Part shown: in pieces, positions 20,629-39,106 of the stretch
How the letters are laid out: each line of letters opens with the position of its first letter
Numbering within the stretch: the stretch's first letter is position 1
Source of the DNA: Candidatus Bathyarchaeota archaeon
Lineage (GTDB): Archaea; Thermoproteota; Bathyarchaeia; Bathyarchaeales; Bathycorpusculaceae
Direction: 5' to 3'
Length of the DNA: 64,000 bases
Assembly (NCBI GenBank): GCA_963768425.1
Contig: CAVYHV010000030.1
Span: 81,902-145,901, forward strand
Made by a program: the position numbers and the translations under genes
The notes under the pieces: model-generated
Told to the model about the DNA's origin: nothing
What the model saw: only the letters and a program-made list of their open reading frames with translations
Databases searched by the model: none

Positions 20629-20957
20629 GTAGATAGCACTAAGTTTGCAGCAATTTTGAATAGTTGCAAACATGCTCTTGTTAGTCATTATTTGTTAAAA
20701 TAGCAAGTTTATGAAGTTGTTTTCTCAATTGGTGGCTGCATAAGCCTTGTAGTTTTAAATACGCTATTGATTATATTAAATTTGAGGCAGACGTGCTTGC
20801 GTAAAAAGAAGAATACGCGCAGAAACATTCGCATAAGAGTTGATGACACACACAGCAATGAATATCATCGTCTGTATATGCAACGCTATAATGCTAAGAT
20901 TCGTGGCAAACGCGTCAAACCTCGTGGCAAATATAAAACAAAGAAGAAGGCGTAAAG

Positions 20958-22001: not shown

Positions 22002-22033
22002 CCTTTTCAATGCTCAATGGGAGTGCACTTTAA

Positions 22034-22396: not shown

Positions 22397-22587
22397 CTAA
22401 CATTCCATTCATTTCTACGTTAATGATTTCTACTCTATCTACCCCATTGTAGACTATGCAAATATGTTACTATCACTTGTATGGTCAATTGTTAGATTCG
22501 CATGCTGCAAAGAGCGTGTCTTTGCAACCCTGGATACGTATATATTCATTACAGTTATCTTAAATCTTAAGACAGAAGGACAACAAA

Positions 22588-23019
22588 TTGAAAAAAGATG
22601 ATGGTACAATTGCAGAAGTTGGCAACAATTACATTATGCTAAATGATTCTAGAGATAGCATAATAATTTTCTTTTGCATGACTGGAGTAAGTGCAACTGT
22701 AGATGAAGAAGAATTCAAGAATCTTGCAGACATATTTGCATCTGCGAAGAAGCTTTTAGATGACGACAGAATTTCAGTTGCAAAAATAATTGCGTGCAGA
22801 GAAGAACAAACTGAGCAATGCTTTAGCAATTTGCACTTTGATAAAGGAACATGCAGAGAAACACCGTGTAGTCCAGACATGTTTTGCAAACTCTTTATTG
22901 ATGACTGTTCTATGACGTTTGACATAGCATTTGAAGACTTAGACGACATCATCAAGCTGTTTGCAATTGCAATGAAAGCACTCAACAAGAAAGAAGAGTC
23001 AAACATTGCAGTCTCGTGA
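22588..23019 (+). CDS. acidic hypothetical protein
   Basis: Follows the duplicated promoter motif. Confidence 0.6.
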   Translation: MKKDDGTIAEVGNNYIMLNDSRDSIIIFFCMTGVSATVDEEEFKNLADIFASAKKLLDDDRISVAKIIACREEQTEQCFSNLHFDKGTCRETPCSPDMFCKLFIDDCSMTFDIAFEDLDDIIKLFAIAMKALNKKEESNIAVS

Positions 23020-23024
23020 GGTGA

Positions 23025-23288
23025 ATGCAATTGAAAGTAGAAGCATTTTGTAATTACTTGAGAAATAAAATGGCTGCTGACGCTGCAGTGTATGCATTTA
23101 TGAATGGATTGTCTAAAGCAGAAGTTGATGCTGCAATTGCAAGTAAAAGTGATGATGATGTATTAAATGCTTACAGACATTCTAAGTACGATGGACACGA
23201 ATACATTAGCAAAAGTGAGCTTGAAACTTTAATTAAGAAGTCAGCAAGCTATGAGCAAATTGAAGACGCTACTGGCAAAATGGTGTAA
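23025..23288 (+). CDS. hypothetical protein
   Basis: GAGGTGA RBS directly upstream. Confidence 0.65.
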   Translation: MQLKVEAFCNYLRNKMAADAAVYAFMNGLSKAEVDAAIASKSDDDVLNAYRHSKYDGHEYISKSELETLIKKSASYEQIEDATGKMV

Positions 23289-24039
23289 TTGCATGACTAC
23301 GTATATGCTCTTTGCGACTACGGAAACGAATATATGGAAAAACTTACTCTATAGCTAATTGCTCACTTCGTCTAACTTTCAAAAAAACTGCTTAGGAAAT
23401 GTTTGTCAATTTCTCCAATTGCAATTGGAGAAGGTGACTGAGACTACATGTCTTCGCATCTTCTACAAAGTCTTAGAGCCATGACGACTCTTACGCCATA
23501 GTTCGTTATTCCTTTGTAGATAAGTTTAGTTGGCTTTTCAAGTCCGCAATTGTTGCAATGAGTTCCATTGCAATCGTCATACCAACCTGCTAATGCTCCA
23601 GATGGAAGAATGTTTGAACGATTTGACAATTGTTGTTTAGACATTTTGATTGCCTTCTTTTTGCTTTGGGAATGTTTGACGTTTTTGAGAATCTTTCACC
23701 AGAAATTGTTTCGTTTTCTTCTGGGTTACGCCCTACTTCAGGATGTTACTGTAGAAAGAAAAGCCAGTCCTTGTCCTTAGCTTACTGGGGATGGGTGAGC
23801 CAAGATTGTCCAGAGAAGAGGTCTTGGCTTCTGGGTTTGAGGTTTTGAGTTTTTGATTCTTTAGCTTCACCTGTCGGTGTTTGACAAGCATAGATAGATC
23901 ACACGCCTATTGAACAGATGCCATTGAGCGTGTAATATTGACTACTGTAAGACACACATACAGAAGAATTATTGCAATTGTAACATTCACTTACACAAAA
24001 CTTAGAATCTGATAACTCAAAAACCCAATGGAATGTTTG

Positions 24040-24939
24040 TCATTTTCGCTTGCGAAAAAGTTTCTCACCATTAAAGTCTACGACAAACTCAAAACCTGAC
24101 TCAACCAATTTCTGAGCTTCAACAATTGTATGTGCAATTGCAGAAGAATACTCATCACTTTCAAAGTTAATCATTTGAATGTAAATTAGAGTGTTGTTGA
24201 TTGACTTGTGCCCAAGCAGTCTCATGACGTGAAGAATATCTTTCGTCTTATGATACTCAATTGTAGCTCGCCAATGTCTGAGACTGTGATAATGAATTTG
24301 TGCAAGTCTTGGATTACCTAACGCAATTGCTGCTGCACGCTTTTGATGATTGAAGTTGCATATGACTGATTGACCGCTACCCGTACCAAAAACATATTTG
24401 TTATCTTTCTTCAATTGCATCAGCATAGCACACAACTTCTCAGATATTTTGAATTGACGTGCGTTGCTGTGCTTCTCAGGATTATTGAGCAAAACTATTC
24501 TGCTCTCGAAGTCTATGTCAGTCCATTGGAGAGAAAGAGCTTCTCCGATACGCATAGCTGTCTCTTTCAACAATTGCAGAATCGTAGAAGTTTTCTTTCC
24601 ACAATACGCAATTAGCTGGTCTATTTCTGATTCTAATGGAATGAATGGAAGCTTATGTGTAGCTCGATACTTAGGTGGATTCCATTCTATGTTATTCATT
24701 GTTGCGTATTTTCTGTACGCTGCTACAACTGTTACTTTAGTCGCTGAACTCCATGTTGATTGCAATGCAATTGCAGATTTCACTGACTCTCCATCGCAGA
24801 GTTTTGCGCCTGATTTCACTAACATTTCTAAGAACTTAGAGTAGTTAGTTATCGTTCTGCTGCTATACCCATTCCTTTGCAATTGGAGAGAGAACTGCAA
24901 CAGGCTGCTTGTCTGTAGATTTGAGTACGCCTTTTCCAT
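24040..24939 (-). CDS. tyrosine recombinase/integrase 1
   Basis: MRIGE, PEKHS, HSLRH, LLGH, TLIY catalytic residues; C-terminal FRKRK tail. Confidence 0.95.
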   Translation of the reverse strand: MEKAYSNLQTSSLLQFSLQLQRNGYSSRTITNYSKFLEMLVKSGAKLCDGESVKSAIALQSTWSSATKVTVVAAYRKYATMNNIEWNPPKYRATHKLPFIPLESEIDQLIAYCGKKTSTILQLLKETAMRIGEALSLQWTDIDFESRIVLLNNPEKHSNARQFKISEKLCAMLMQLKKDNKYVFGTGSGQSVICNFNHQKRAAAIALGNPRLAQIHYHSLRHWRATIEYHKTKDILHVMRLLGHKSINNTLIYIQMINFESDEYSSAIAHTIVEAQKLVESGFEFVVDFNGEKLFRKRK

Positions 24940-25041
24940 ACAATTTAATTGAGCATGTATTCCTTTTAAGACGTTCTACTTGTGCATGTGAATCAATTGC
25001 AACAAAATATAAGATAAAATTGGATTGTATGTATTTTAAAT

Positions 25042-25073
25042 CTTTAACTATCCCTATTCGAGCATAGTTAAAG
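25042..25073. other. 32-bp dyad recombination-like site 1
   Basis: CTTTAACTAT-CCCTATTCGAGC-ATAGTTAAAG; perfect 10-bp arms, ~100 bp upstream of integrase 1. Confidence 0.85.
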
Positions 25074-25172
25074 AAACTCCTCCTATAATCACCCAAGGAA
25101 AAATCAATCAAAGAACTACAGGTTGCAATCTAGTGGCAAATCATATTAGGAATTTTTTATAAATAGCAGGTT

Positions 25173-25508
25173 ATGACTCTCCTGAGTAGTCCAACAGCAA
25201 CTCCGTTTGACAATATGCAACAACAAGTTCTTATCTCACAATATTTGACATTTGCCCTAGTCTTAGGCATAGCTGTTCTGCTTGCTGTGTCAAATCTCTA
25301 TTTTTACGCACCAAGATATAGGAAATGGGTCGGGATAGCAGGTATTTCTCTTGGAGCAATGGGAAGCGCTATCTGCATTGGAGTTATACTTCTTACCGTT
25401 TCAAACAATGGTGCGGATCTTGGATTAGGTGTCATTACCCTTTTTGTCATTGAAATTCCAGTTATGTGCGTTGGAGTCTTATCTGTAAAGAACAGGAAAA
25501 AGACATAA
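25173..25508 (+). CDS. three-TM membrane protein (cassette-like)
   Basis: Flanked by the exact direct repeat TATTCGAGCATAGTTAAAG at 25055 and 25521. Confidence 0.75.
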   Translation: MTLLSSPTATPFDNMQQQVLISQYLTFALVLGIAVLLAVSNLYFYAPRYRKWVGIAGISLGAMGSAICIGVILLTVSNNGADLGLGVITLFVIEIPVMCVGVLSVKNRKKT

Positions 25509-25520
25509 TCAGACGGAAGT

Positions 25521-25539
25521 TATTCGAGCATAGTTAAAG
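25521..25539 (+). repeat. half copy of the dyad site (part of spacer plus right arm)
   Basis: TATTCGAGCATAGTTAAAG, 12 bp after the stop of 25173..25508; no left arm. Confidence 0.85.
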
Positions 25540-25584
25540 TAAGCCTTCATATGTAAAGCAGAGAAGCAATTGAAAGAAGAATTC

Positions 25585-25641
25585 GGTCAAGAAACTTTGA
25601 CTAAATTCAGTCAAGGAATTTTTACGAATAGCCTTTTATCG
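25585..25641 (+). repeat. AGTCAA triple-box plus TATA module, copy 1
   Basis: GGTCAA-GAAACT-TTGACT-AAATTC-AGTCAA...GCCTTTTATCG. Confidence 0.85.
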
Positions 25642-25663
25642 ATAACCATTCGTACTGATTATT

Positions 25664-26884
25664 ATGGGCTTTAAGAAAACTTCCGCTTTGGTGCTTATTG
25701 GGTTATTTCTGATCTCTATTGTCAGCTTTCAATCTGCAATTGTGAAAGCTCAAGCCAGAACGCTCATTGTTCCAGACCAGTACCCAACTATTCAAGATGC
25801 TATAGGCAATGCAAGTTCAGGAGATACAGTGTACGTCAAAGATGGAACATACAATACAGGGTTTAATATTGATAAATCATTATCGTTAGTTGGAGAAGAC
25901 CCAGAAAAGACTATCATTCGTGGAATCGAACGATACCCATATTGGCAATATCCAACAATTCAGGTATCTGACGAAAATGTCAGTATTTCAGGCTTTACAA
26001 TAACAAACTCCTGGGAAGCCATCGACATCTACAACGTTAATGACGCTTATTCAATTAGTATTACTGGTAACAACATTGTAAAAAATTTGTCTGGAATCGG
26101 AGCAGGGGGCGTGAATTTAGTTATCTTTGGGAATAACATAACTGATAACTCGAAAGGCGGGATAAGTTTTGACGGTCAAAACAGCATCATTTCTAATAAC
26201 TACATTTACCAAAACTCATTTGGAATATACACGTCTGAGATTAAGAATGTGACCATCCAAGACAATACTATTTCAGATAACGGAGGAAACTCGAATTCGG
26301 AGCAATTTGGTGGACTGGATCTTCAGAGTTTTGCTTCCATCTTTGTTCATGGAAATAATATCGAAAATAACGTTGGGGATGGTATCTTGCTTGAGGGCAA
26401 CATCAAAGCTTCAATCCACAATAACAATATAACGAACAACACTGTGGGCATAAAACTTGATAATTATCTTCTCGGAGGTATCTTCCATAGTGTGGGCACA
26501 GGCAATGAGATTTACAACAACAACCTGATCGACAATATCAAGAACGCTTTAGTAGTGCATACAGACGAAAATGATGCCACATGGAATGGATACATAGGGA
26601 ATGGAACAGATGTTGTTTCATGGGATAGCGGTAAGGTTGGCAATTACTGGAGTGATTACAGCGGTCAAGGAACTTATGTTATTGACCAAAACAATACTGA
26701 CGAGCATCCGCTAAGTCAACAAGTTCACATTTCTACAATAACACCTACAATACCTAATTTGCTTTCCATACTAAACGGTGCAATTATCGTGGTTATTGTA
26801 GTTGCATTAACTGCCATTGTCGCATTATTACTTTACAGAAGGCATCGAAAGACCACTAACTCCAGACAATTGACACCTCACTAA
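25664..26884 (+). CDS. NosD/right-handed beta-helix surface protein with C-terminal TM anchor
   Basis: VPDQYPTIQDAI, repeated I.GNNI, GNYWSDY, TM plus RRHRK. Confidence 0.9.
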   Translation: MGFKKTSALVLIGLFLISIVSFQSAIVKAQARTLIVPDQYPTIQDAIGNASSGDTVYVKDGTYNTGFNIDKSLSLVGEDPEKTIIRGIERYPYWQYPTIQVSDENVSISGFTITNSWEAIDIYNVNDAYSISITGNNIVKNLSGIGAGGVNLVIFGNNITDNSKGGISFDGQNSIISNNYIYQNSFGIYTSEIKNVTIQDNTISDNGGNSNSEQFGGLDLQSFASIFVHGNNIENNVGDGILLEGNIKASIHNNNITNNTVGIKLDNYLLGGIFHSVGTGNEIYNNNLIDNIKNALVVHTDENDATWNGYIGNGTDVVSWDSGKVGNYWSDYSGQGTYVIDQNNTDEHPLSQQVHISTITPTIPNLLSILNGAIIVVIVVALTAIVALLLYRRHRKTTNSRQLTPH

Positions 26885-27289
26885 TTGAAATCGTAGTTGA
26901 ATGTTTGATGATTTTCACTATGATTTAGACCTTTGAGATGATTGAGGTAACTTAGACCCATGTCTTGAGACTAGTCATAAAGTATACCCCAACGATTGAC
27001 TATGAAGAAATAACTTGTTAATTATTTTAACATTCCAATAACAAAAGAGACTTAGAGAATAATAGATATTTAGTCACAACTTGGAATGTTGAAAGGTCTT
27101 GAAATACTGTGTTTAACATGACCCATGTTGATTAAAATGCATTCTTTTCCATTGAAAAAAGAATTTTTGAACGCTTCTCTCAAAGACTTTCATATGATAA
27201 ATTATAATTAGCTGTGTAGTGTGAGCGAAGGACTGTGTCATTTAGAATTATTCTTCCCAAACCAAAGAGAGCCTGATTGACTCAACAAC

Positions 27290-28120
27290 TTGTTGCTAGA
27301 CCCTTATCAGATTACCGTCAACAGTGTAGATAGGACTACTACCCTGACTGATATTTCCAGAAATCTAAATCCTAGCAGACACCATACTAATTTAAAAACC
27401 AAAAGGGCAGATATTGAAACTCCAAAGAGGGGGGTTGACCCTCAAAGGAGTTGGACAATAATAGTTAGACAATACAATGAATATAAAACCTATCAATTCT
27501 GCAGCAATGCAGTTTATGACAATTGGTGCATGGGTTTCATTGACTATAAAGAGCTGAAAGAAGAATTTGTAAAGTTTCCTCTTCCGGATGTCCCACAAAG
27601 ATATAACAAAATGGTGGAGCTAGCTACCCTGTTCTTCCTTCCAGTCATCATAAGAGAGTTGCTAGAACCTTTTTATGAGAAGATTGAAGTCTCTTGTAAC
27701 TACTTTCCATCCACAGGTCCGGACATAATTGTTTTTTCAAAGGATAGTCTCTTGTTAAAGATGGAGGTATTGAATTGGTGGATACAGTCATATCTTTCAG
27801 AGGGAAGGGCCTCAGGCATAAAAGACAATCTCAAGGGAGCACGCTACAAGGTCTTGTATGTAACATCCGACAAAAACTTAACAACATGGACTATGAATAG
27901 TAAACTCCTTTCAGGTCTCAAGAAAGCGCTCAAAGGAGTTAATATTTACTACTCACGTTACCAAATACTTCCAATTACTTATTTTGACTATCTTTTCAAG
28001 ATTGATTACAGATTTGCTAAGGATAGAGCAATCTTCAATGAGAAAACCATCAAACACCAAAAGATTCGATTAAAGAGGTTCTTTGAGCAAATAGGGATTA
28101 TTCCTCTTGTAAAGAGATAA
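27290..28120 (+). CDS. hypothetical protein, possible PD-(D/E)xK-fold nuclease
   Basis: GPDIIV...MEVLNW (Lys position replaced); start uncertain. Confidence 0.5.
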   Translation: MLLDPYQITVNSVDRTTTLTDISRNLNPSRHHTNLKTKRADIETPKRGVDPQRSWTIIVRQYNEYKTYQFCSNAVYDNWCMGFIDYKELKEEFVKFPLPDVPQRYNKMVELATLFFLPVIIRELLEPFYEKIEVSCNYFPSTGPDIIVFSKDSLLLKMEVLNWWIQSYLSEGRASGIKDNLKGARYKVLYVTSDKNLTTWTMNSKLLSGLKKALKGVNIYYSRYQILPITYFDYLFKIDYRFAKDRAIFNEKTIKHQKIRLKRFFEQIGIIPLVKR

Positions 28121-28397
28121 TAATAGAATAATGGCTAGACAGAGATTATCCTTGTTCTGCCTATTTCAATATTTGATTAACCCTTTCTAAAAGGAATTGT
28201 TCTCATTTGAAAATAAGAGGTTTCAATTCCGCCCTTTCCAAAAACAAGACACAATCCTCTTGTAAATATGGTATTATGTTTGATTATTTCTTTCTGTTCC
28301 CAATCTGGTTAATGGTTTCTGACTTTGTGATAGTGGGTGGTTTTATGTTGTTTGACCTATCTAAGAAACCTAAATTATTCAACTGTTTGATAGGTTA

Positions 28398-29300
28398 TCA
28401 TTTTCTCTTTCTAAAAATCTTGACTCCATCAAATTCTGTAACGTACTCGAATCCAATTTCAATCAACTTCTGAGCTTCCTCAACTGTTTTGGCAACTGAA
28501 GAGGTGTATTCATCACTCTGTTCGAACGCAACCAGATGTGTGTAGATGAGGGTGTTGTTGATGGATTTGTGTCCTAGGAGGTTCATGACATGAAGAATGT
28601 CTTTGGTTTTGTGGTATTCAGTGGTCGCCTTCCAATGTCTTAATGTGTGGAAGTGGATTTGAAGGAGATGAGGATTCGCTAACGCAACTGCTGCTTTCTT
28701 TCTCTGAAACCTGAAGTTACAAATTGTAGATTGTTTACTTCCTATTCCAAAAATAAACTTCTCATCTTTTTTTATTCTAAGTATCATGGAAGATAGTTTT
28801 TCAGATATCTTAAAACAACGAGCATTACTATGTTTCTCTGGTCTGTTGAGTAGGATTACTCCTCTTTCCAAGTTGATGTCTGTCCACTGTAAGTCTAACG
28901 CTTCTCCGATCCGCATTCCTGTTTCCTTTAGGAGTTGAAGAATTGTAGAAGTTTTCTTTCCACAGTAGGCAATCAGAGAATCAATTTCAGATTCAGTGGG
29001 AATGAAGGGTAACTTTGTTGTTCTCTGGTACTTGGGTCTAACCCATGATATGTTGTTCATTTCCGCATACTTAGCATAGGTGGCAACCACAGTCACCTTT
29101 GTGGATGGACTCCAATCCGATTTAAGAGAGATGACTCCTTTGACAGACTCAGGGTCACTCAAGTCAGCCCCATATCTTACTAACAATTCAAGGAACTTGG
29201 AGTAATTCAATATAGTTCTCTCAGAATAACCATCCTTCTTGAGTTTCCAAGAAAACTGAATTATTCCATCGTTCTCATGATTAGAGTATGTAAGTTCCAT
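28398..29300 (-). CDS. tyrosine recombinase/integrase 2, paralog of integrase 1
   Basis: MRIGE, PEKHS, HTLRH, LLGH, TLIY; colinear with 24040..24939. Confidence 0.95.
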   Translation of the reverse strand: MELTYSNHENDGIIQFSWKLKKDGYSERTILNYSKFLELLVRYGADLSDPESVKGVISLKSDWSPSTKVTVVATYAKYAEMNNISWVRPKYQRTTKLPFIPTESEIDSLIAYCGKKTSTILQLLKETGMRIGEALDLQWTDINLERGVILLNRPEKHSNARCFKISEKLSSMILRIKKDEKFIFGIGSKQSTICNFRFQRKKAAVALANPHLLQIHFHTLRHWKATTEYHKTKDILHVMNLLGHKSINNTLIYTHLVAFEQSDEYTSSVAKTVEEAQKLIEIGFEYVTEFDGVKIFRKRK

Positions 29301-29400
29301 AGTATTTTTAAGTAAGTTATTCCTTTTAAAATATTCTATATCTGCATGTCTTTCAAGTGATAAAAATATTAGTTAAAATTGGATTTTATTAGTTTTAAAT

Positions 29401-29432
29401 CTTTAACTATACCTATTCGAGCATAGTTAAAG
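29401..29432. other. 32-bp dyad recombination-like site 2
   Basis: CTTTAACTAT-ACCTATTCGAGC-ATAGTTAAAG; 31/32 identical to site 1. Confidence 0.85.
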
Positions 29433-29488
29433 AAACCCCTTCCGCAATCAACCAATGGAAAACAAAGAGACAATTGGAAAAAGAGTTC

Positions 29489-29546
29489 AGTTAAGAAAGT
29501 TTGACTTAGCTTAGTCAAGAAACCTGTACAAGAACGCTTTTATCGG
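29489..29546 (+). repeat. AGTCAA triple-box plus TATA module, copy 2
   Basis: AGTTAA-GAAAGT-TTGACT-TAGCTT-AGTCAA...GCTTTTATCG. Confidence 0.85.
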
Positions 29547-29568
29547 CAGACTAATTCCAAACGTTGTT

Positions 29569-30180
29569 ATGGGTAAGAAAAGATTAGTCATAACATCCTT
29601 GTTAGTGGCTCTACTCTTTGTAAGCGCAATTGCAGGAACGGTAGCTTATTATAATGACAAAATGGCGAACCTAAACAGCCAAGTATCTGAGTTAAAAGCA
29701 GTAATAGCGAATTTATCAACTCGCAACATGACGGCTTCATTGGGAATTGCTGAACTGTTAGGCAATGAAAGCACCTATATGGGTGGCTATGTTGCTACAC
29801 CAATTCCATATAATTACCTTTACATAACTGGTTCAATAAGAAACGTTGGAAACGCCACAGCATACAATGTTGGACTACACGTCATAGCTTTTGATGCGAC
29901 AGGCGCATTAGAAATAAACATGACAGTTCCATTGGATGGAATATTTGGAATCGATAACGCAACCAGAACTTTTGTTTTAGAACACTACGGCTATGGTAAT
30001 TATGACCCAGCGAATCATACCTACAGCAACCATTACAGCTCAAGATTGTGGGAGATTGTGGATGGAAACCAGACAGTTGATATTGGTGGTGCGCCTGACT
30101 ATTATGGTTCTCTAAGCATCATCAATGAAGGCATAGTTACCAATTGGACTGTAACACCTGTATGGACAGATGCGCCATGA
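29569..30180 (+). CDS. secreted/anchored hypothetical protein (short coiled coil plus beta-rich domain)
   Basis: Signal peptide; YITGSIRNVGNATAYNV. Confidence 0.8.
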   Translation: MGKKRLVITSLLVALLFVSAIAGTVAYYNDKMANLNSQVSELKAVIANLSTRNMTASLGIAELLGNESTYMGGYVATPIPYNYLYITGSIRNVGNATAYNVGLHVIAFDATGALEINMTVPLDGIFGIDNATRTFVLEHYGYGNYDPANHTYSNHYSSRLWEIVDGNQTVDIGGAPDYYGSLSIINEGIVTNWTVTPVWTDAP

Positions 30181-30217
30181 GTCAAGGAGCTTGCTTCTAT
30201 AGCTATGAATCGAAACA

Positions 30218-30275
30218 AGTCAAGAAACCTTGACTAAGCCCGGTCAAGAAATCAGTACAAGAGAGCTTAAATATA
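30218..30275 (+). repeat. AGTCAA triple-box plus TATA module, copy 3
   Basis: AGTCAA-GAAACC-TTGACT-AAGCCC-GGTCAA...GCTTAAATA. Confidence 0.85.
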
Positions 30276-30312
30276 AATGAAAAGTGCTGCAACAGCAAGA
30301 ACGATCAAAGCC

Positions 30313-31002
30313 ATGACTAGGAAGAGGAATTTACTATTTGGTTCAATAATTGTTGCTGTGGTAGCGGGTTCTTTTATTATTGCATTGATCCTGCTAAATA
30401 GCCAATCTTCGCCGGTTGAGAAGACGGTACCGGAAAAACTGAGTTTGGGTCTTTTTTCAAACCAAACGAGCGTGTTGCAAGGGGGCGAAATTCAGGATGA
30501 AGTTAATGTAACCTCAAATCGCCCTGCCGAAAACATAACATTGAATGCTCAAACGGGAACAAGCGGCATAATTTCCATTTTCGAGCCCTCCGTCAGCCAC
30601 AACAATTTTACAAGTTTTCTTAACATAAAAATCACTGATTCTGCCCCTACAGGAAACTACTCCATAAGTATAACAGCCTCAGGCGATGGCCAAACAGCAA
30701 CCAGTTCTTTTGATCTTTCCGTTCTTAGTGCCAATGTCACAGTTTCCGGGAGAATTGAGATGTCCACAGGATATGAGAATGGATACCTAACCTCACTCGT
30801 GTTCTATAGCGAACAAACAAACACCAATCAAACGATACATATTCCACATGCTTCGATGCAAGGTCTATTAAACGGTCTTTTAAGCGATTATTCCGTTACT
30901 CTTCAAAATAACCAGACGTACATCGTGTGGGTGAATTATTTTCAGGGAGACGCAAGCCTTCATGAATTTTATCCCGTGCAGTATTATTTCGGCCCGTATT
31001 GA
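30313..31002 (+). CDS. membrane-anchored Ig-like surface protein
   Basis: TM N-terminus, APTGNYSISITA; ATG 30313 preferred because 30277 abuts the TATA box. Confidence 0.75.
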   Translation: MTRKRNLLFGSIIVAVVAGSFIIALILLNSQSSPVEKTVPEKLSLGLFSNQTSVLQGGEIQDEVNVTSNRPAENITLNAQTGTSGIISIFEPSVSHNNFTSFLNIKITDSAPTGNYSISITASGDGQTATSSFDLSVLSANVTVSGRIEMSTGYENGYLTSLVFYSEQTNTNQTIHIPHASMQGLLNGLLSDYSVTLQNNQTYIVWVNYFQGDASLHEFYPVQYYFGPY

Positions 31003-31128
31003 TCTTTGCACCCGCAGGAAAAAACACAATATCTGGATTAAACTTCACTGGATAACCCATGCAAGACTTTCACCAAAGACATAGAGTAGATTGGTCGCAC
31101 AGCAACTATAACCCACCCAATAACGTCT

Positions 31129-31185
31129 AGTCAAGAAACTTTGACTTGCCACAGTCAATAATCCTTAACGAACAGGCTTTTATCG
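31129..31185 (+). repeat. AGTCAA triple-box plus TATA module, copy 4
   Basis: AGTCAA-GAAACT-TTGACT-TGCCAC-AGTCAA...GCTTTTATCG. Confidence 0.85.
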
Positions 31186-31208
31186 CCTGCACTTGCTTAA
31201 CACTAAAC

Positions 31209-32090
31209 ATGAGTAAAATCGGCAAAACCTTCGCTTTGATTCTCATTCTCATTATGACTATCTCAAGTATTGAACTATTAGTAGCTAAACATGCAAGTGC
31301 TCAATCAATCGGAAATCTGACTGCTCCAACTTTCACAGTCACACTAACAAACACCTCTTACTCTACACCACCTAGCCATTACGTTGACCCTCAAACAGGC
31401 GCAAACATCACAGTGCCAGGCTCTTTTGTCAATCAAGAAAACCTTACGTTTACCATTCAAAATCAACCAGACGTTACCTACTACATAATCCGATGGACAA
31501 CACCGTACATGAAAAGCTGGAGTAACATCGAGGGATACATTGGTGGAGACCCTATGAATGCTACTGTTAAAGGAACTTCAGGTTCAACAACAATCTGGGT
31601 TCTAACCGGCAATAGCAATACGTTCCCAATATACGAAAATGGCAGTCTCGTTGACACGGTCGCCGGTTTCTCCTTTCCGTTTGGTTTTCAAGAACTCAAT
31701 TTTGAAAACGGAGCCAAAATAGAATTTCAAGTCCAAGCCTCAAATGGTTCGCCTACTTACGTGTCAACCATCCTAGACGAGCACTTTTCTATTATAGGTG
31801 AAATAAGCGATTGGAGCAGCACGCAAACAATAACCATACCATCAAGTTCTGCTGCAACAAGTCCATCACCTATTACTATAACAACTCCTGCCGTTCCAGA
31901 GTTGTCTTGGTTGATGATTATGCTTTTGCTTCTTTCCGTGTTCTCTGTTGCTGTGATAGTTAGGCGTCTAAAAAACCTCGGACTGGACCAGCAAAAATTT
32001 CCTGGTGAAAGTGGTAATGGAATGTTTGACGATTTTCTGGCAGTCTATAATCTTTTGCCAGTAGTATTGAAACCTATTTCTAAGACTTAA
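31209..32090 (+). CDS. secreted surface protein with VPEL-TM-basic (PEF-CTERM-like) anchor
   Basis: MSKIGKTFALILIL signal; AVPELSWLMIMLLLL...RR; ATG ~24 nt after the TATA. Confidence 0.8.
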   Translation: MSKIGKTFALILILIMTISSIELLVAKHASAQSIGNLTAPTFTVTLTNTSYSTPPSHYVDPQTGANITVPGSFVNQENLTFTIQNQPDVTYYIIRWTTPYMKSWSNIEGYIGGDPMNATVKGTSGSTTIWVLTGNSNTFPIYENGSLVDTVAGFSFPFGFQELNFENGAKIEFQVQASNGSPTYVSTILDEHFSIIGEISDWSSTQTITIPSSSAATSPSPITITTPAVPELSWLMIMLLLLSVFSVAVIVRRLKNLGLDQQKFPGESGNGMFDDFLAVYNLLPVVLKPISKT

Positions 32091-32127
32091 TAAAACAATT
32101 ATGCAGGTAGAAATGTTTGACGTTTTC

Positions 32128-35031
32128 TCAATAATTTCTAATTAAAATTGATGTGAGACAAGCGGGCATTTTTGGTTTTCTCTCTCTGACAAATATAATC
32201 GATAACAGTATTACTGTTGCAAGAAGTGGCAGAATTATCAAAGTTGGAAACTCTGGAACGATTGATGTCTGTGACCCAAACGTTATGACTACGGTGTGGC
32301 TACTGTGATGATAAGTAAAACTTATTAGCCAAACATTTCCCTCCGAAATGGAATTATAATTAATTGTTCCGCCGTCTAAGGTGACGTTGAGTTTTGAAAT
32401 ATCTGGGATGAGGGATTGCGGAACGCAAACTTCAGTAAACCCGGTTGTTCCCGAAGGTCCAGAAACGCCAAAGCTTAATTCGTTTGTTGTTGAGTCAAAC
32501 GTTAGGCTTGTAAGCGTTGAGTTTGAAGTAACGGAGAATACGTTTTGATTTTGGCTGTTGAAAGGTTCTATTGCAAAGTTGTATACTGCACTTGCACTTG
32601 AATAGTCGCTGTCACCTGACCACGTAGCTTCGATGCCATAAAAACCTGAGACAGAGGGATTCCACACGCAAGAAAAGTTTCCGTCATTGCCAGTTTTTAA
32701 GTAAGCTAAGTCTTGCCAAGTTGCTCCTCCCGTGACGCTGTCAGAAAGCTGAATTCCAGCATCAGGCAAGCCTGCTCCGTCACCTGTTAATGAACCTTGA
32801 ATTTGAACGTTAAATCCAGAGGTTGTCGTGGAACTTATGCAGACGAATGATAAGTTCGGAGATGGCAGATTTGATGCTGGTGTTGGCGTTGGAGTCGGAG
32901 TTGGAACTACGGTTGGTACAACTGTTGGGGTTGGCGTGGGAGAAGGCACATTGTTTGCCCAATACGTATCACTAACATCGACTAATCCAATGCATCCTGG
33001 ATTGCTGCTTGCCGCATCAAATAATGTATATACGTTATCTCCAACTACTATGATTCCGGGAGACCCTACTCCGTTAGTGTCCCAAATGTATTGTCCGCCG
33101 CTTAAGTATGGCTCTGATGGATATGCATCCCAATGGATAAGGTCAGAACTGTAATACCAATAAATCACTGGTAGTGGACCTGCAAAAAGGGTAGCTTGCA
33201 TGAAATACAAGTTAGATGTAGGAACTGTAAAGACGTCTGAAGTTTCTATTGAATATGATGCCGTTAAAATCGGTGCCGAACCATAAATTGTCCATCCATA
33301 AGGAAATGACGAAGCAGATGTTGTAGCTAACAGAACTTGGCCGTTTCCATCTACGAAATACATGTAGTATGTGCTTCCGACAAGAATTACAGATGGGTTA
33401 AAAATGCTGCTGCTTCCAGCCCAATTCGGCGGAGAAAGAATTGGATTTTCTGAGTATTTAGTCCATGCCGAAGTTGAGTTCAAACTACTTACTGGACAAG
33501 TGGCTAAACCAATGCTACTGTATCCTCCACCAACTTCAGAACCATAAAACATGTACACGGTACTTCCATTCACGATTAAACATGGAGCTGAAACTCCGTT
33601 AGGATTTTCCCAAGATTGTGTTTGTGTGAGAACTTGTCCAATTACAGTCCATGTTTGTAAATTGGTGCTTTGCGCTAAACCTATAGTCCAATTTCCAGAA
33701 GATTCTTCTCCCGTAGGTGTGGCGCTGAAAGACATGTAATAAGATCCGTTAGCGTAAATGACAGAGGGGTCTTTCACTCCACTGAGATCAAAACTGTCTG
33801 TTCCCGTAAACACAGGACTTGTTGAAACAAAAGTTAGAGATGATGGAGGTGTTGGGGTCACTGGTGAGGGAGTGGGTGTTGGAGAGGGACCAGGCGAAGG
33901 ACTAGGCACGCTAGGAATGTAGACAGGAGCTAGCGGATTACTTGAATTTAAGAATGGAACATAATTAACCGTTCCCAAATTCAAATTGTCTTTGAAGTCA
34001 TAAATTTTTTGGCTAATTGCCTGTGAATCATTTGTTCCCCACCAATTGTAAGTAGCATCAATATTTGAGTTAACACTTCCAGCCAGTAAGAAATTATAAT
34101 TTGAGTTGTTATAGATGTTGTTACCAGAAATCAAATAGCTGACCGACCCACTATACGAGCCTATGAAAACTCCATCAGTATTATTGCTGATTGTATTGTT
34201 TTGAGTGATTATCGTAAATGGATTATAGTTGCCGTACAAATCCAGTTCAATTCCGCGAGTATTATCAAAAACCAAATTCTCCTGTATCAAAGATTGAGTG
34301 GTATACTCCGAATTAGCAGTAGCATAAATCCCCATGTAAGAACCAAACACCAAGTTGCCGTAAACGGTTGCATTTCCTAGGAGATAAATTCCAGTGTAGC
34401 GAGCAGCGAAAACTGTGTTATTGCAAATAGTTCCTCCACTGGCCGTAATTTGACCCTCTACGGTGTTGTTGGAGATTATTGGGGCCGCTATTCCTTCGAC
34501 ATTAATTGCATCATTGTTACTTACTTGGTTAGTGCAATAAATTGTATTATTGTCTAATTTTGGTGAAACCGAATCTATCAGTATAGTCGGATACAGCTCC
34601 CATGTGGAAGTGATAAATGCGTTCTCAATTATGCTTCCAGATTTTGTTGCATCATTCCAACTTAGACTACTGCCCTCAAACTCAATTGCTCCATCTCCAC
34701 TACCAGCCCCATTGGGTATGTTAAACACTATGTTATCACTCGACGTGCCTGTAGCATTTAACGTACCGTTTACTCTCAGGTAATATCCATTAAAATTGAC
34801 TGTGACTCCCGGCTGAATCGTAAGCATAACGCTATTATTGACAAGTACATTTCCAACAAGCAAATATGGGCTACTTGCTTGCGTCCACATAGTGTCTGAG
34901 CTTATTATGCCACTTACGTTCGTACCGCTTTGAGCCTTGCTAAAATGGACATAAGTAACTCCAACCATCGTGGAAACTAATAATGCCACGATTAATGCCA
35001 GTGCTAATGCGCTTCTTTTCATAAGCACCAA
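32128..35031 (-). CDS. large surface protein: beta-helix, five-bladed-propeller glycoside-hydrolase-like domain, P/T linkers, PEF-CTERM-like anchor
   Basis: NN-rich repeats, NWWG, KDPSVI..YYM and FNPSVI..YYM blades, VPEFPT-TM-RERK. Confidence 0.8.
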   Translation of the reverse strand: MVLMKRSALALALIVALLVSTMVGVTYVHFSKAQSGTNVSGIISSDTMWTQASSPYLLVGNVLVNNSVMLTIQPGVTVNFNGYYLRVNGTLNATGTSSDNIVFNIPNGAGSGDGAIEFEGSSLSWNDATKSGSIIENAFITSTWELYPTILIDSVSPKLDNNTIYCTNQVSNNDAINVEGIAAPIISNNTVEGQITASGGTICNNTVFAARYTGIYLLGNATVYGNLVFGSYMGIYATANSEYTTQSLIQENLVFDNTRGIELDLYGNYNPFTIITQNNTISNNTDGVFIGSYSGSVSYLISGNNIYNNSNYNFLLAGSVNSNIDATYNWWGTNDSQAISQKIYDFKDNLNLGTVNYVPFLNSSNPLAPVYIPSVPSPSPGPSPTPTPSPVTPTPPSSLTFVSTSPVFTGTDSFDLSGVKDPSVIYANGSYYMSFSATPTGEESSGNWTIGLAQSTNLQTWTVIGQVLTQTQSWENPNGVSAPCLIVNGSTVYMFYGSEVGGGYSSIGLATCPVSSLNSTSAWTKYSENPILSPPNWAGSSSIFNPSVILVGSTYYMYFVDGNGQVLLATTSASSFPYGWTIYGSAPILTASYSIETSDVFTVPTSNLYFMQATLFAGPLPVIYWYYSSDLIHWDAYPSEPYLSGGQYIWDTNGVGSPGIIVVGDNVYTLFDAASSNPGCIGLVDVSDTYWANNVPSPTPTPTVVPTVVPTPTPTPTPASNLPSPNLSFVCISSTTTSGFNVQIQGSLTGDGAGLPDAGIQLSDSVTGGATWQDLAYLKTGNDGNFSCVWNPSVSGFYGIEATWSGDSDYSSASAVYNFAIEPFNSQNQNVFSVTSNSTLTSLTFDSTTNELSFGVSGPSGTTGFTEVCVPQSLIPDISKLNVTLDGGTINYNSISEGNVWLISFTYHHSSHTVVITFGSQTSIVPEFPTLIILPLLATVILLSIIFVRERKPKMPACLTSILIRNY

Positions 35032-35091
35032 TCGCTAATACGTTTAACTTTCTCTAATGTTTTGTGCTGTAGGCTATTTCTAGAGCATTGG

Positions 35092-35142
35092 GATAAAAGG
35101 CTATTCGTAAAAGTTTCTTGACTGGGTTTAGTCAAAGTTTCT
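35092..35142 (-). repeat. AGTCAA box plus TATA module, copy 5 (inverted, two boxes)
   Basis: Reverse strand: AGAAACT-TTGACT-AAACCC-AGTCAA-GAAACTTTTACGAATAGCCTTTTATC. Confidence 0.85.
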
Positions 35143-35309
35143 CTTATGTAAGGAAACGATCGAAGGCCAAACCAAACAGACTTCCGACTACCTTTCTACT
35201 TCACCCATCCACACTTAAATTTCTTTCACCAATGTATTTCAGACAACATTCTCTTATCAGCGAACAAAGTCGCACTACGGCTTCAGCTAACAGCCAAGGA
35301 AAACTCCAT

Positions 35310-36433
35310 TCTTGACCAAGCAGATAAACTGCAGCAAACTTTAGAAGACATCCCAAGCTGCCCGTCCTACTTTACCGTGAAATCCCGCTCATAAGTCCAA
35401 ACAGCCCAAACCACATTCACCAACTTACGAGCAACAATCTTAATCGCATCCTTGCTATTGCCTTTCCTAACACAAGCATCTCTAAACACAGCCGCCAAAT
35501 GACCCTCTGGACAAAACCTAACATGAGACCAAGCAGACTCAATAAAAATACACTTAAGCCAACAATCACCCCTCGCTTCTTTTCCAGCAAACGAATGCTC
35601 ACCAGACTGACTCACCCTCGGCACCAACCCAGCATAATGCGCCAACTTCTCAGCACTGCTAAATCGTTTAATATCGCAAATCTCCGCATACAACGTCAAA
35701 GCCGACAAAAAACCAATTCCTGGTATGGTCATAAGCAGCTCAACAGGCTTAATCTTTCCATATTTCCTTCTCAGCATGGCTTCAATTTTCTTAGTCTGCT
35801 CAGCCATAACATCCAACAGTTCAAGGTTCTGCTCAACCTCAAAAACGCCAAGATCAGAAGCTTCCCTTCTTCCCTTCAAAGTCCCCAAATTAACATCAAG
35901 ACTAATATCTCGCTTCCTAAACTCGGAGCGGGTCCTATTCTTAACACTTGTAGACAACTTTGTTCTATACGACCGATGTCTTAGCAGGTTCCTAAGCCAC
36001 CGCAACTCGCTGGGAGGAACATAACAGGTTGGCAACCAATTCATCCTCACTAAATCAGCCAACAACTTACTATCCACACGATCAGTTTTAACATCTTCTG
36101 CACGATATTTCACTTTCACCGGATTCGCCAGCAAAGGCTCAAACTCTAATTCATCCAAAAAATCAATCCAAGGCCAACAAAAACCAACCGATTCCAACGC
36201 CACCTTACTGCCTTTAGGAACATTCTCTAAAGACGTTCGCAATTCAGCTCTACTTGTCTTAATTCTCTCTGTTTTTACTATCTCACCATTCACTTTCATT
36301 ATTGTTACCTGAGTATTCTTCAGGTGAACATCCAAACCAACCACCACATCGCTCAACTTCTCCTACCTCCGATATCACTACTGGCTTATCGGAGGTCTAC
36401 TTAGAAAATCCTTTACATCCCGTCTTGACCAAG
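35310..36433 (-). mobile_element. IS110-family insertion sequence (boundaries tentative)
   Basis: Transposase flanked by 11-bp direct repeat TCTTGACCAAG at 35310-35320 and 36423-36433. Confidence 0.65.
35367..36356 (-). CDS. IS110-family DEDD transposase/recombinase
   Basis: GLDVH, ALES, KTDRVD, TIPGIG, YAGLVP..SQSG, ARKL. Confidence 0.95.
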   Translation of the reverse strand: MSDVVVGLDVHLKNTQVTIMKVNGEIVKTERIKTSRAELRTSLENVPKGSKVALESVGFCWPWIDFLDELEFEPLLANPVKVKYRAEDVKTDRVDSKLLADLVRMNWLPTCYVPPSELRWLRNLLRHRSYRTKLSTSVKNRTRSEFRKRDISLDVNLGTLKGRREASDLGVFEVEQNLELLDVMAEQTKKIEAMLRRKYGKIKPVELLMTIPGIGFLSALTLYAEICDIKRFSSAEKLAHYAGLVPRVSQSGEHSFAGKEARGDCWLKCIFIESAWSHVRFCPEGHLAAVFRDACVRKGNSKDAIKIVARKLVNVVWAVWTYERDFTVK

Positions 36434-36738
36434 ATTAGTTTATTTCTACTATCAGATTCAAGACTTTCGAATAAATTATGTTTCAACAAATGGATAGATT
36501 TCTTTTTGCGAAATGCAAAAAACGTTAGTTGAAATTGGAATGCGTGAGTTTGAAATCCTTAACTATCACTGTCTACGTCTATCTCAAGGTGGATAACGTT
36601 TCTCGATTGACTGTTTGGTGTGGTTTTATCCTCTGCTTTTGATGTGGTTTGTCTAAGATGAAAGACTGTTCTGCTTGCGGAACACTTTGTTCTTCTGGGA
36701 GAGCTAAAAGGCGCTCCTTCGTATTTTCTTAATGTGGG

Positions 36739-37510: not shown

Positions 37511-37527
37511 TTAAAATCTTTAACTAT
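37511..37527 (+). repeat. right island boundary (attR-like), 17-bp direct repeat
   Basis: TTAAAATCTTTAACTAT, identical to 14114-14130. Confidence 0.85.
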
Positions 37528-37561: not shown

Positions 37562-39106
37562 ATGGAGTTAAAGGTTGAACTCTTACCCATACTTACAGGC
37601 GGAAGCAGAATCGCCATCCTCAGCGAAGGAAGCGCCGACTCTTTGGGCGTGCACAGCTCCGACAGAATACGAATAAAATATGGCAACCAAGAAATAATTG
37701 CCATCGCGAACATCGCTGAATATTTTTCGAATAAGCGCATAGGGCTCTACGATGAAACCGCCAAAGTCCTCGGTGTGAAAGAGGACGAAACTGTTTCGGT
37801 GCAGTTGGCTCCTCTTCCTGAGTCGCTTTTCATGGTGAGGGCTAAACTTCATGGGGAACGTTTACGCGAAAAAGACGTCGTTACCATCGTCAAGGACGTT
37901 GTTGAACGGCATTTGAGTAACGCGGAAATATCAGCGTTTTTAACTGCCCTTAGCATCCATGGGCTGAGTGCAAGCGAGAACGAGGCGCTGTCGAGGGCGA
38001 TGGTTGCAACGGGTAAAACTTTAAACTTCGGCGAAGGGCCCATCCTTGACAAGCACAGCGTCGGCGGGATACCGGGGGACAAAACGTCCATGCTGGTCGT
38101 GCCCATCATAGCCGCTGCAGGGTACACGATTCCTAAAACTTCTTCAAGGGCAATAACTTCTCCCGCTGGAACTGCGGACAGAGTCGAAACCCTCTGCCCA
38201 GTTAACCTTTGCATAGAGGAGATTAAGAAGACGGTGGCAAAGACAGGCGGCTGCTTGGTTTGGGGCGGCGCCTTGGAGCTTGCGCCAGCCGACGACCTCT
38301 TCATCCAAGTCGAGTACCCCCTTGGAATTGACCCTATGCTACTGCCTTCGATTCTCAGCAAGAAAAAAGCAATGGGAGCAACCCACGTGGCCATCGACAT
38401 CCCCACAGGCATGGGCGCCAAAATCAAAACCCGAACAGAAGCTTACACCTTAGCTTCAGACTTTGTGGATTTAGGCAAACGTTTGGGCTTGAACATTCAA
38501 TGCGCTTTGACTTTCGGCGACCAACCATTGGGCTGCGGCATTGGACCCGCATTGGAAGCAAGAGAAGCATTAGCGACTCTTATGGGCGGCGGACCAGCCG
38601 ATCTGCGCGATAAAGCCGTAAGCCTCGCAGGAATGCTTTTCGAGATGGTTGGAGCAGAGAACGGCCGAGCCAAAGCTGAAGAAATGATTGACTCAGGCAA
38701 GGCGGAGGCAAAGATGCGGGAAATCATCGCTGTCCAAGGCGGAAACCCTAAGGTGCAGCCCGACGACCTTCCAGTAGGCTGCGAACACTTTGAGGTGAAG
38801 TCTGACCGGGCGGGAAAAGTCATTTGGCTCAGCACCGACAACATCGTGCGCATCGCAAGGGAAGCTGGCGCACCCAAGGAGAAAGGCGCAGGCATGATTC
38901 TACATGCCAAACTCGGCGACACGGTGCATAAAGACAGCGTGTTATTTGAAATCTATGCAGACCGAAGCAGCAAGTTGACGTCGGCGCTGGAGCTTGCAAA
39001 GCAGCTACCCCCCATCGTGTTAACCAACAAGCCCGCGGAAAAAATGATTCTGGACCAGGTGCCTGAGAAGCTTGCACACGAAAAGACATTCAGCTTAGAC
39101 AGGTAA
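37562..39106 (+). CDS. AMP (NMP) phosphorylase
   Basis: Archaeal N-terminal extension, DKHSVGGIPGDKT, PKTSSRAITSPAGTAD, GIGPALEA. Confidence 0.95.
   Translation: MELKVELLPILTGGSRIAILSEGSADSLGVHSSDRIRIKYGNQEIIAIANIAEYFSNKRIGLYDETAKVLGVKEDETVSVQLAPLPESLFMVRAKLHGERLREKDVVTIVKDVVERHLSNAEISAFLTALSIHGLSASENEALSRAMVATGKTLNFGEGPILDKHSVGGIPGDKTSMLVVPIIAAAGYTIPKTSSRAITSPAGTADRVETLCPVNLCIEEIKKTVAKTGGCLVWGGALELAPADDLFIQVEYPLGIDPMLLPSILSKKKAMGATHVAIDIPTGMGAKIKTRTEAYTLASDFVDLGKRLGLNIQCALTFGDQPLGCGIGPALEAREALATLMGGGPADLRDKAVSLAGMLFEMVGAENGRAKAEEMIDSGKAEAKMREIIAVQGGNPKVQPDDLPVGCEHFEVKSDRAGKVIWLSTDNIVRIAREAGAPKEKGAGMILHAKLGDTVHKDSVLFEIYADRSSKLTSALELAKQLPPIVLTNKPAEKMILDQVPEKLAHEKTFSLDR

Follow-up and report, generated by a model that had tools for sequence, protein, structure and literature searches.

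The window analyzed here is a stretch of 64,000 nt (64 kb) from contig CAVYHV010000030.1 (positions 81,902 to 145,901, forward strand) of assembly GCA_963768425.1, a Candidatus Bathyarchaeota archaeon. Between 25.5 and 35.2 kb it carries exactly five copies, and no sixth, of a 58-nt element, hereafter the module, in which two tandem palindromes lead into a sequence resembling an archaeal core promoter. An initial annotation of this DNA had offered two readings of the element, a cassette recombination site, which it favored, and an activator operator defining a surface-protein regulon. On the sequence comparisons described below, we consider it likely that the module is a transcription-factor operator fused to an archaeal core promoter and that it defines a regulon of surface proteins.

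The 58-nt module in the window

The five copies are arranged as follows (BRE, transcription factor B recognition element):

25583..25640, + strand: module 1 (80.8 bits), with two tandem palindromic putative operators, BRE-like ACGAA and CTTTTATC; boxes from 25585
29487..29544, + strand: module 2 (74.6 bits); boxes from 29489
30216..30273, + strand: module 3, the weakest copy (49.5 bits), with TATA-like CTTAAATA; boxes from 30218
31127..31184, + strand: module 4 (67.8 bits); boxes from 31129
35092..35149, - strand: module 5 (60.1 bits), unaltered between TATA box and first spacer; from 35143, the outer arm of the distal palindrome gives way to one end of an insertion sequence (IS)

A strict search pattern, RAGAAASNTTGACTNNNNNNRGTCAA, matched the window five times, compared with 0.00 matches expected from 100 shuffles, and all five copies were found where the initial annotation had placed them. 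With a weight matrix built from related genomes, the five sites scored 49.5-80.8 bits, while the next-best independent site in the window stayed below 0 bits and the best of 30 Markov-shuffled windows reached 3.1. In a repeat search, the four plus-strand copies aligned over 56 nt at 66-77 % identity, and copy 1 matched the inverted copy 5 at 92 % identity over 51 nt; the similarity therefore spans the boxes through the TATA-like box.

Anatomy and conservation were derived from 113 aligned sites, with the positions fixed by the search pattern kept apart from those left free. A 24-bp unit occurs twice in tandem in the module, and each unit is palindromic, with arms of 8 bp (TTAGTCAA-N6-TTGACTAA). 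The complete palindrome is 22 bp long, TTAGTCAA-GAAACN-TTGACTAA, and occurs twice at a 24-bp step; its spacer, GAAAC-N, is asymmetric. The consensus reads TTAGTCAAGAAACtTTGACTaAncTtAGTCAAGAAAccTTTACGAaaAncCTTTTATc. At the same 12-bp step follows a fourth arm, TTTACGAA, a hybrid that overlaps the BRE-like ACGAA, and CTTTTATC stands 4 nt later. The window's tRNA-Met gene likewise has ACGAAAC ahead of its TATA-like box. The three hexamer boxes described initially are thus real, but their arms measure 8 bp and a fourth, degenerate arm is present. The alternation of boxes at 12 bp and the conserved first spacer (GAAAC) were confirmed, as were the TATA-like box after the third box (CTTTTATC or CTTAAATA, 18 nt downstream) and an ATG at a fixed short distance in three cases (24 nt after ...TATC in copies 1, 2, and 4). 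The second spacer had been called variable; however, A at +15 is conserved at 73 % and T at +18 at 78 %, because both positions belong to arms.

Conservation within the arms amounts to 69-100 %, and positions left free by the search are conserved at 69-98 % overall. Among the latter are G (96 %), T (98 %), and C (81 %) of the first box as well as the fourth arm TTTACG (93, 88, 70, 94, 88, and 69 %). Further downstream, A at +38 is conserved at 92 %, A at +41 at 93 %, and CTTTTAT at 82-90 %. Information content is about zero upstream of -6, and no conservation was seen outside -6 to +51. In the consensus, two of six pairs between the fourth arm and the third box are broken, and variants of box 1 (19 % non-C at -1) are uncompensated; the arms therefore follow no hairpin logic, which matches sequence recognition by a protein. 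A known RNA family or hairpin was also considered and rejected, since Rfam gave no match at gathering score in 13500-38000 and the arms show no co-variation.

The initial annotation had also reported partial boxes at stop codons (30180 and 37427). These proved to be single hexamers, and the matrix scores no site at either position. Counting both strands, the window contains 73 AGTCAA hexamers (46.2 +/- 6.3 expected), about 60 of them outside the modules, and the stop-codon boxes, being single hexamers at chance level, were rejected as real sites.

The module in other genomes and the genes behind it

Scanning 185,579 species-representative genomes with the strict pattern yielded at least 122 matching loci, of which 80 were available with 2-kb flanks. 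By our own arithmetic, about 35 chance matches would be expected across the collection at uniform base composition. Among the matches listed, to which the counts below refer, 112 loci are of the module type and represent at least 114 distinct sites in at least 52 assemblies. The titles of the 52 listed assemblies comprise 48 Bathyarchaeota or Bathyarchaeia, one 'uncultured archaeon', and three bacterial labels with complete modules, which were taken for mis-binned contigs. Ten listed loci (L011, L027, L041, L052, L083, L090, L095, L101, L103, and L104) were set aside as chance because they carry bacterial, Methanosarcina, or Thermoproteota titles and show no first box or TATA box by eye. A TATA-like word at +43 to +52 is present at 99 of the 114 listed sites and at none of the nine scorable set-aside sites. 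Within the listed loci, the matrix detected 14 further variant sites of at least 40 bits, which form arrays like that of the window.

Behind 89 of the 114 sites, an open reading frame (ORF) of at least 50 aa opens with an ATG at +55 to +220, and 49 of these ORFs start at +73 to +78. A start about 24 nt after a TATA box implies a leaderless mRNA. In 205 upstream regions of other ORFs from these genomes, a weak G-rich signal resembling a Shine-Dalgarno sequence and no fixed TATA box were seen. An N-terminal hydrophobic segment was found in 75 of the 89 downstream ORFs, including all 49 of those starting at +73 to +78, compared with 61 of 211 other ORFs in the same flanks and two of 38 window ORFs outside the island. 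A C-terminal hydrophobic anchor is present in 38 of 49 complete secreted downstream ORFs of at least 150 aa. When 54 downstream proteins were searched against Pfam, five PQQ propellers, four NosD beta-helices, and NHL, lectin/LamG, and arylsulfotransferase-like domains were found, and 38 proteins had no family; as several unrelated families are represented, the module precedes non-homologous genes.

Other kinds of gene also stand behind the module. These comprise (i) a gene for a 56-aa zinc-ribbon protein (L033, at 1768-1935; L036; L067, at 2092-2262; L088; L113; L117), followed in L033, L036, and L067, those with 2-kb flanks, by genes for a proteasome beta subunit and an aCPSF1-like protein; (ii) a gene for a 320-aa protein that combines a Cys cluster at its N terminus with several winged helices of ArsR/TrmB-like type (L017, at 2136-3095; L018, at 2132-3094; L082; L110); and (iii) a PAC2 gene (L005). 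In L084, L096, and L118, CTTTTAT also follows the palindromes on their reverse strand, again with a 4-nt gap, and an ATG stands about 24 nt farther on, so that one operator pair appears to serve two divergent promoters.

In five orthologous pairs of loci, 52-56 of the 58 module positions are identical, compared with 45-74 of the 100 nt upstream and 133-169 of the first 200 coding nt. With 90-97 % identity against 75-85 % in coding DNA, the module appears to be under purifying selection and not merely young. The alignments of L036 with L067 (-1306 to +1985) and of L017 with L018 (-177 to +1061) pass unbroken through the module. The zinc-ribbon/proteasome beta/aCPSF1-like locus bears on the recombination reading as well, as the initial annotation had named occurrence before conserved housekeeping genes without rearrangement breakpoints as the mark of a pure transcription-factor site; the module stands before this locus and is inherited there without breakpoints.

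The genes downstream of the five window copies are the following:

25664..26884, + strand: target gene 1, 406-aa secreted right-handed beta-helix protein (NosD-like) with C-terminal membrane anchor (Pfam NosD 1.3e-17, Beta_helix 5.3e-17)
29569..30180, + strand: target gene 2, 203-aa protein with N-terminal signal or anchor; ATG 24 nt after TATC; no Pfam family
30313..31002, + strand: target gene 3, membrane-anchored protein (from the translation); no family found
31209..32090, + strand: target gene 4, 293-aa secreted protein of a paralogous family with at least 28 members in at least 20 loci
32128..35022, - strand: target gene 5, 964-aa secreted protein (Pfam) whose N-terminal part is beta-helix-like and which also contains a GH32/43/130-like propeller and an Ig-like domain; hydrophobic anchor with ...PEFP... 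at the C terminus

These genes had been described as unrelated, but all five products begin with a hydrophobic stretch of signal or anchor type, and several carry a membrane anchor at the C terminus. Target gene 1, whose ATG lies 24 nt after TATC, is predicted to be leaderless; its first 63 aa are about 90 % identical to those of the protein in L074, and the remainder about 35-40 %. The similarity to L074 was noted over window 25583-25852. Relatives of target gene 2 sit behind the module in L047 and L050. The ORF of target gene 3 opens at ATG 30277, but ATG 30313 is likely its start, as the former is only 3 nt past the TATA-like box. Target gene 5 has a leader of about 45 nt with GGTG before its ATG at 35022-35024. 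Pfam returned no family for three of the five window target proteins (genes 2, 3, and 4), and NCBIfam no sorting-signal model in any of the five; their C-terminal anchors may resemble archaeosortase signals.

Surface genes of this kind are mosaic. The anchor-coding 3′ end and about 30 nt past the stop are 79-85 % nucleotide-identical between genes with unrelated ectodomains. In gene 4, the anchor-coding stretch (nt 31884-31977) is 78-85 % identical to the 3′ ends of other module-driven genes, and window 31884-32055 shares the anchor-end similarity with L032, L039, L070, L078, and others. L032 and L039 carry different genes between the same flanks. In L074 (2030-2090, - strand), a gene-less relic of anchor-coding sequence is fused straight to the next module, a trace of a deletion between neighboring surface-gene units.

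Taken as an operator, the module shows a dyad-symmetric, repeated recognition sequence (the two 22-bp palindromes), a fixed placement relative to BRE, TATA box, and start, conservation above that of its flanks, and a shared set of non-homologous targets. The operator and regulon part of the second initial reading is thereby supported by the conserved phasing, the secreted targets, and the breakpoint-free inheritance. We infer that a protein binds the module. Probably a dimeric winged-helix regulator, it would recognize both tandem palindromes sequence-specifically and, with these in fixed register to the core promoter, would recruit transcription factor B (TFB) or the TATA-binding protein (TBP). 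Transcription would then start about 24 nt past CTTTTATC, usually at the ATG itself, giving a leaderless mRNA. Across soil and peat Bathyarchaeia, most members of the regulon would be secreted and fast-evolving surface proteins, often with a C-terminal anchor; the 56-aa zinc-ribbon protein and the 320-aa multi-winged-helix regulator would belong to it in several species as well.

We lean somewhat toward activation by recruitment of TFB or TBP rather than repression, because the distance from the sites to the TATA box downstream is invariant and they are used in either orientation. Archaeal activators are described as typically binding upstream of the BRE, EarA with four 6-bp boxes directly upstream of it (PMC5512572), and the palindrome of TrmBL1 as activating from upstream of BRE/TATA and repressing from downstream (PMC4706686).

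As the binding factor itself, the multi-winged-helix family is the best candidate. It comprises 1399 clusters at E <= 1e-5, and among the listed matches the module precedes its own gene in four species. Its source names are nearly all Bathyarchaeota or Bathyarchaeia; one listed match, P0019, is labeled Chloroflexi. Both the multi-winged-helix and the zinc-ribbon proteins are candidates for self-regulated regulators. Winged-helix proteins of the ArsR type with a membrane segment were found within 2 kb of the module in six of the loci listed. An 88-aa winged helix-turn-helix gene within the window (14207-14473) was rejected as cognate regulator; it belongs to an integrated element and is not conserved with the module.

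Several points weigh against this regulon reading. The proposed operator function and leaderless start are drawn from position and general archaeal promoter knowledge, and signal peptides were called by a hydropathy heuristic instead of a trained predictor. No TATA-like word stands at the fixed distance in 15 of the 114 listed sites, and 14 of the 89 downstream ORFs are not signal-peptide-like. Many targets are paralogous with similar signal peptides (at least 28 members in one cluster), so that part of the promoter similarity reflects descent by duplication and not independent recruitment. The overlap of the proximal arm with the BRE-like element would also be typical of a repressor acting by TFB exclusion, and the conserved, asymmetric GAAAC spacer is unexplained by a simple symmetric homodimer. 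Finally, tblastn searches of the window with the multi-winged-helix, zinc-ribbon, and ArsR-membrane candidates gave no match.

Integrases, att-like repeats, and an insertion sequence around the modules

The region is a recombination hot spot, and the sites at which its DNA is rearranged can be read from the following features:

24040..24939, - strand: tyrosine integrase 1 (Pfam Phage_integrase 8.9e-21; PHROG integrase 1.3e-29); its start faces the repeat at 25038
28398..29300, - strand: tyrosine integrase 2, paralogue of integrase 1 (Pfam 6.2e-22); its start faces the repeat at 29397
14117-14130, 25038-25051, 29397-29410, 36553-36566 (1 mismatch), and 37514-37527, + strand: copies of AAATCTTTAACTAT, likely the integrase att core (five vs 0.08 expected)
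35143..36424 (+/- 2 nt), - strand: IS110/IS1111-family insertion sequence of 1.28 kb (Pfam DEDD_Tnp_IS110 1.9e-18, Transposase_20 9.8e-21)
36425..36432, - strand: detached outer arm of module 5, TTGACCAA on the + strand, read from the junction sequence

The two integrase genes share about 71 % nucleotide identity, and the 100 nt upstream of both are 85 % identical. Three related loci (L032, L039, and L119) match the RuBisCO side of the window up to 14130/14131, where L032 continues with the sequence of window 29394-29544; on the other side, L032 matches up to window 32055 and resumes at 37515. Asked whether homology ends inside the AGTCAA motif, as a recombination site would have it, these comparisons instead place the breaks at AAATCTTTAACTAT (14130|14131 resuming at 29394, and 32055|37515). 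Two AAATCTTTAACTAT copies enclose just one module-driven gene, of about 1 kb, in both L032 and L039. As both the junctions and the integrases are found at AAATCTTTAACTAT and not at the AGTCAA boxes, we take this repeat to be the att core and the module to be cargo or neighbor, which overturns the initial preference for a recombination site. The nearest modules lie 95 and 550 nt beyond the integrase-facing repeat copies, and module 1 falls within the segment bounded by the att-like cores at 25038 and 29397.

The flanking genes encode a form-III RuBisCO (12855-14075, - strand), an e2B2-type isomerase (11920-12852), and an AMP-phosphorylase-like protein (37562-39103), presumably the archaeal AMP-salvage trio. 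In the window, the interval between the RuBisCO and phosphorylase genes measures 23.5 kb and has a G+C content of 0.36-0.42 vs 0.45-0.50; in L032 and L039, the RuBisCO/isomerase and AMP-phosphorylase-like genes are about 1 kb apart. The closest public DNA comes from Bathyarchaeota metagenome-assembled genomes, with 80-87 % nucleotide identity in RuBisCO and phosphorylase. We read the interval as containing tandem integrative elements (~14131-25034 and ~25052-29393) at one att core between the RuBisCO and AMP phosphorylase genes. Among 19 proteins of the inserted segments, PHROGs recognized two integrases and one regulator only, and the elements are not callable as proviruses on this result.

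An inverted repeat, CTTTAACTAT-N12-ATAGTTAAAG, has the att core as its left arm and is present at window 25040-25073 and 29394-29432, in L032 (1911-1942), and in L074, L078, and L093. It precedes module 2; in relatives its distance to the AGTCAA module downstream of it is 44-94 nt, and its orientation does not vary. In L078 it stands beside an aspartyl-tRNA synthetase gene, with no integrase. The inverted repeat may function as a terminator, as a protein site, or as a pair of divergent promoters.

Two further observations were made nearby. The inverted repeat's right half, TATTCGAGCATAGTTAAAG, occurs twice in direct orientation, at 25055-25073 and 25521-25539, and flanks a 466-bp stretch with a single gene for a 111-aa membrane protein (25173-25508), which looks like a mini-insertion at the inverted repeat. 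At the left end of the first integrated element, 14158-14200 is a degenerate copy of the host sequence preceding module 2; it includes a decayed first half-module and is 73 % like 29467-29503. At the far end of the window (60001-64000), G+C reaches 0.55-0.63, and an IS91-type (Y2) transposase and an rve-type integrase with HTH_21 were found; this stretch is either a foreign insertion or an assembly join.

Copy 5 had been described as carrying two boxes. Two boxes do remain, but the third was cut by the 1.28-kb insertion: the copy is two-boxed because the IS110/IS1111-type element split its distal palindrome. The IS sits between the first spacer and the outer arm of the module with CT at both junctions, and every alignment of other modules to copy 5 stops at 35142. 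Its transposase gene (35367-36356, - strand) is followed by a non-coding region of 224 nt downstream. Within this region, TTCTTGACCAAG (35309-35320) matches the target over 12 nt, made up of 2 nt from the end of the left flank, the CT itself, and the 8 nt with which the right flank begins, and AAACTTT (35336-35342) is the complement of the 7 nt left of CT. As described by Siddiquee et al. (PMC11187229), the non-coding region of IS1111-type elements usually lies downstream, the seekRNA carries short matches to both target strands, and some IS1111 members target attC or repetitive extragenic palindromic (REP) sequences. Because both matches abut the junction, as the seekRNA/bridge-RNA model predicts, the pattern is suggestive of an RNA-guided element programmed for the operator sequence. 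Against such targeting stand the single insertion copy found, the absence of an Rfam match in the non-coding region, and an RNAfold result for that region no more stable than shuffles (z = +1.1).

Rival readings and comparison with known systems

The operator-promoter module may also be read with a repressor as the bound factor. The proximal palindrome would cover the BRE-like ACGAA and keep TFB off, the distal palindrome would add cooperativity, and the surface genes would stay off as long as no signal releases the factor. In favor of this reading, a regulator gene is among those preceded by the module, and regulators are most commonly under negative autoregulation. The fourth arm and the BRE-like element share positions, and ACGAAAC before the TATA-like box of tRNA-Met suggests that ACGAA really is a BRE; interference of archaeal repressors with TFB or TBP at the promoter is described as common (PMC5512572). 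Nevertheless, both palindromes lie upstream of the TATA box and cover neither it nor the start site, and TrmBL1 sites upstream of BRE/TATA are reported to activate in two of three templates, the third being without effect (PMC4706686). The strict phasing of the distal site and its bidirectional use suit recruitment at least equally well, and we regard repression as possible but rather doubtful. Alternatively, a TFB or TBP paralogue acting as a specialized basal factor, instead of a classical regulator, could read the extended sequence. Conservation does run gapless from the palindromes into BRE and TATA box, and promoter selection directed by such paralogues has been described for haloarchaea (PMC2396416). 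Yet two 22-bp dyad units reaching to 50 nt upstream of the TATA box exceed known BRE contacts and look like dimer sites, and the units serve promoters on both strands, which leaves this explanation improbable.

The remaining readings concern DNA mobility. If the boxes were the core site of a tyrosine recombinase, comparable to an integron attC or a shufflon, promoter-bearing cassettes would be inserted, excised, and inverted at them. AGTCAA-N6-TTGACT is core-shaped, with inverted arms around a conserved 6-bp spacer, and two integrase genes lie within 5 kb. Moreover, 48 pairs of loci share at least 150 nt of homology downstream. In 46 of them the homology begins at or past the left edge of the module and is absent upstream; counted by a shared stretch of at least 100 nt upstream, only three pairs qualify, one of them a locus and its own tandem copy. 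The left end of homology falls at -3 to -12 in many pairs, and L033 diverges from L036 and L067 upstream of -8/-11. Most left-edge ends, however, occur between sequences only 65-75 % identical; they are uninformative, because at this identity neutral upstream DNA is unalignable anyway. Insertion junctions relative to related loci are at AAATCTTTAACTAT, the different repeat that abuts both integrase genes. The module was found neither at insertion junctions, nor adjoining an integrase, nor at both ends of a cassette, and the matrix scan revealed no module or half-module at the 3′ end of any target gene in the window. A fixed distance to TATA box and ATG is needless for a recombination site, the consensus fourth arm is unpaired with the third box, and orthologous loci are collinear through the module. 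We therefore consider this reading very improbable. Slightly less remote, although still unlikely, is a selfish or portable repeat, a mobile promoter spread by transposition or homologous recombination and conserved because it is young. Its sharp edges at -6 and +51, its occurrence before unrelated genes, the nucleotide similarity of module and signal-peptide region between different genes, and the mosaic surface genes would fit. Against this, orthologous positions are kept, the module exceeds coding DNA in identity (90-97 % vs 75-85 %), and orientation and distance to the start codon are the same at 49 listed sites. Unlike a miniature inverted-repeat transposable element, the module is placed with respect to start codons, and inspection by eye of the five window flanks and 124 listed sites showed neither target duplications nor any terminal repeats other than the palindromes.

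In soils, peat, and sediments, few uncultured archaea are as abundant as Bathyarchaeia, and to our knowledge almost nothing is known of gene regulation in this class. Read as an operator-promoter, the module gives a sequence-defined regulon that flags a surface proteome mostly without recognizable family (38 of 54 proteins without a Pfam match). It is a concrete bait for the regulator, predicts leaderless starts testable in existing peat and soil metatranscriptomes, and is a candidate portable promoter for future Bathyarchaeia genetics. A broader scenario, which we put forward as speculative and rather unlikely in this full form, is a cassette economy of the Bathyarchaeia cell surface, with a standard 5′ end (operator-promoter and signal peptide), a standard 3′ end, and swapped ectodomains. 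The 3′ end would consist of the anchor-coding stretch and the ~30 conserved nt past the stop, and both ends would act as portable homology arms; CTTTAACTAT-N12-ATAGTTAAAG would land integrase-borne elements, and the operator would be a programmed IS110/IS1111 target. If true, new surface genes, including those borne by mobile elements, would arrive pre-wired to one host regulator.

An operator array fused to an archaeal core promoter is a well-known kind of element. For this particular motif, regulon, or lineage, no description was found in the openly accessible literature, subscription journals lying outside the coverage. The module resembles integron attC and tyrosine-recombinase att sites in its inverted arms around a short spacer and in the integrases nearby, but it is not at junctions or integrases and lacks the defining features of such sites. 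Like the REP and attC landing sites of IS1111/IS110 elements described in PMC11187229, it is a repeated palindromic host sequence with one such insertion; unlike them, it is known from this one insertion, serving as a landing site is not its own function, and the RNA is predicted here.

Among regulatory sites, the TGM (Thermococcales glycolytic motif) palindrome of TrmB/TrmBL1 is likewise a palindromic operator common to a regulon (PMC4706686). TGM, however, is variable in position, single, and linked to sugar metabolism, whereas the module is invariant, double, and linked to surface proteins. The Ptr2 sites of Methanocaldococcus jannaschii (rb2 and fdxA) also lie as multiple sites upstream of the BRE, and Ptr2 is described as a dimeric regulator that activates by recruiting TBP (PMC5512572, citing Ouhammouch et al. 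2003, 2005). Ptr2 belongs to the Lrp family and reads another site, whereas the candidate regulators of the module are ArsR/TrmB-like winged-helix proteins, and no membership is claimed. Finally, the EarA sites in the fla (archaellum) promoter of Methanococcus maripaludis are boxes just upstream of BRE/TATA; according to the account in PMC5512572, the four 6-bp boxes are needed for transcription and control a cell-surface structure. The module differs from them in sequence and in its 8-bp arms, its two palindromes, and its overlap with the BRE, and its binding is a prediction. Whereas EarA acts on one operon, the module stands at 114 or more sites before many unlinked genes in at least 52 assemblies.

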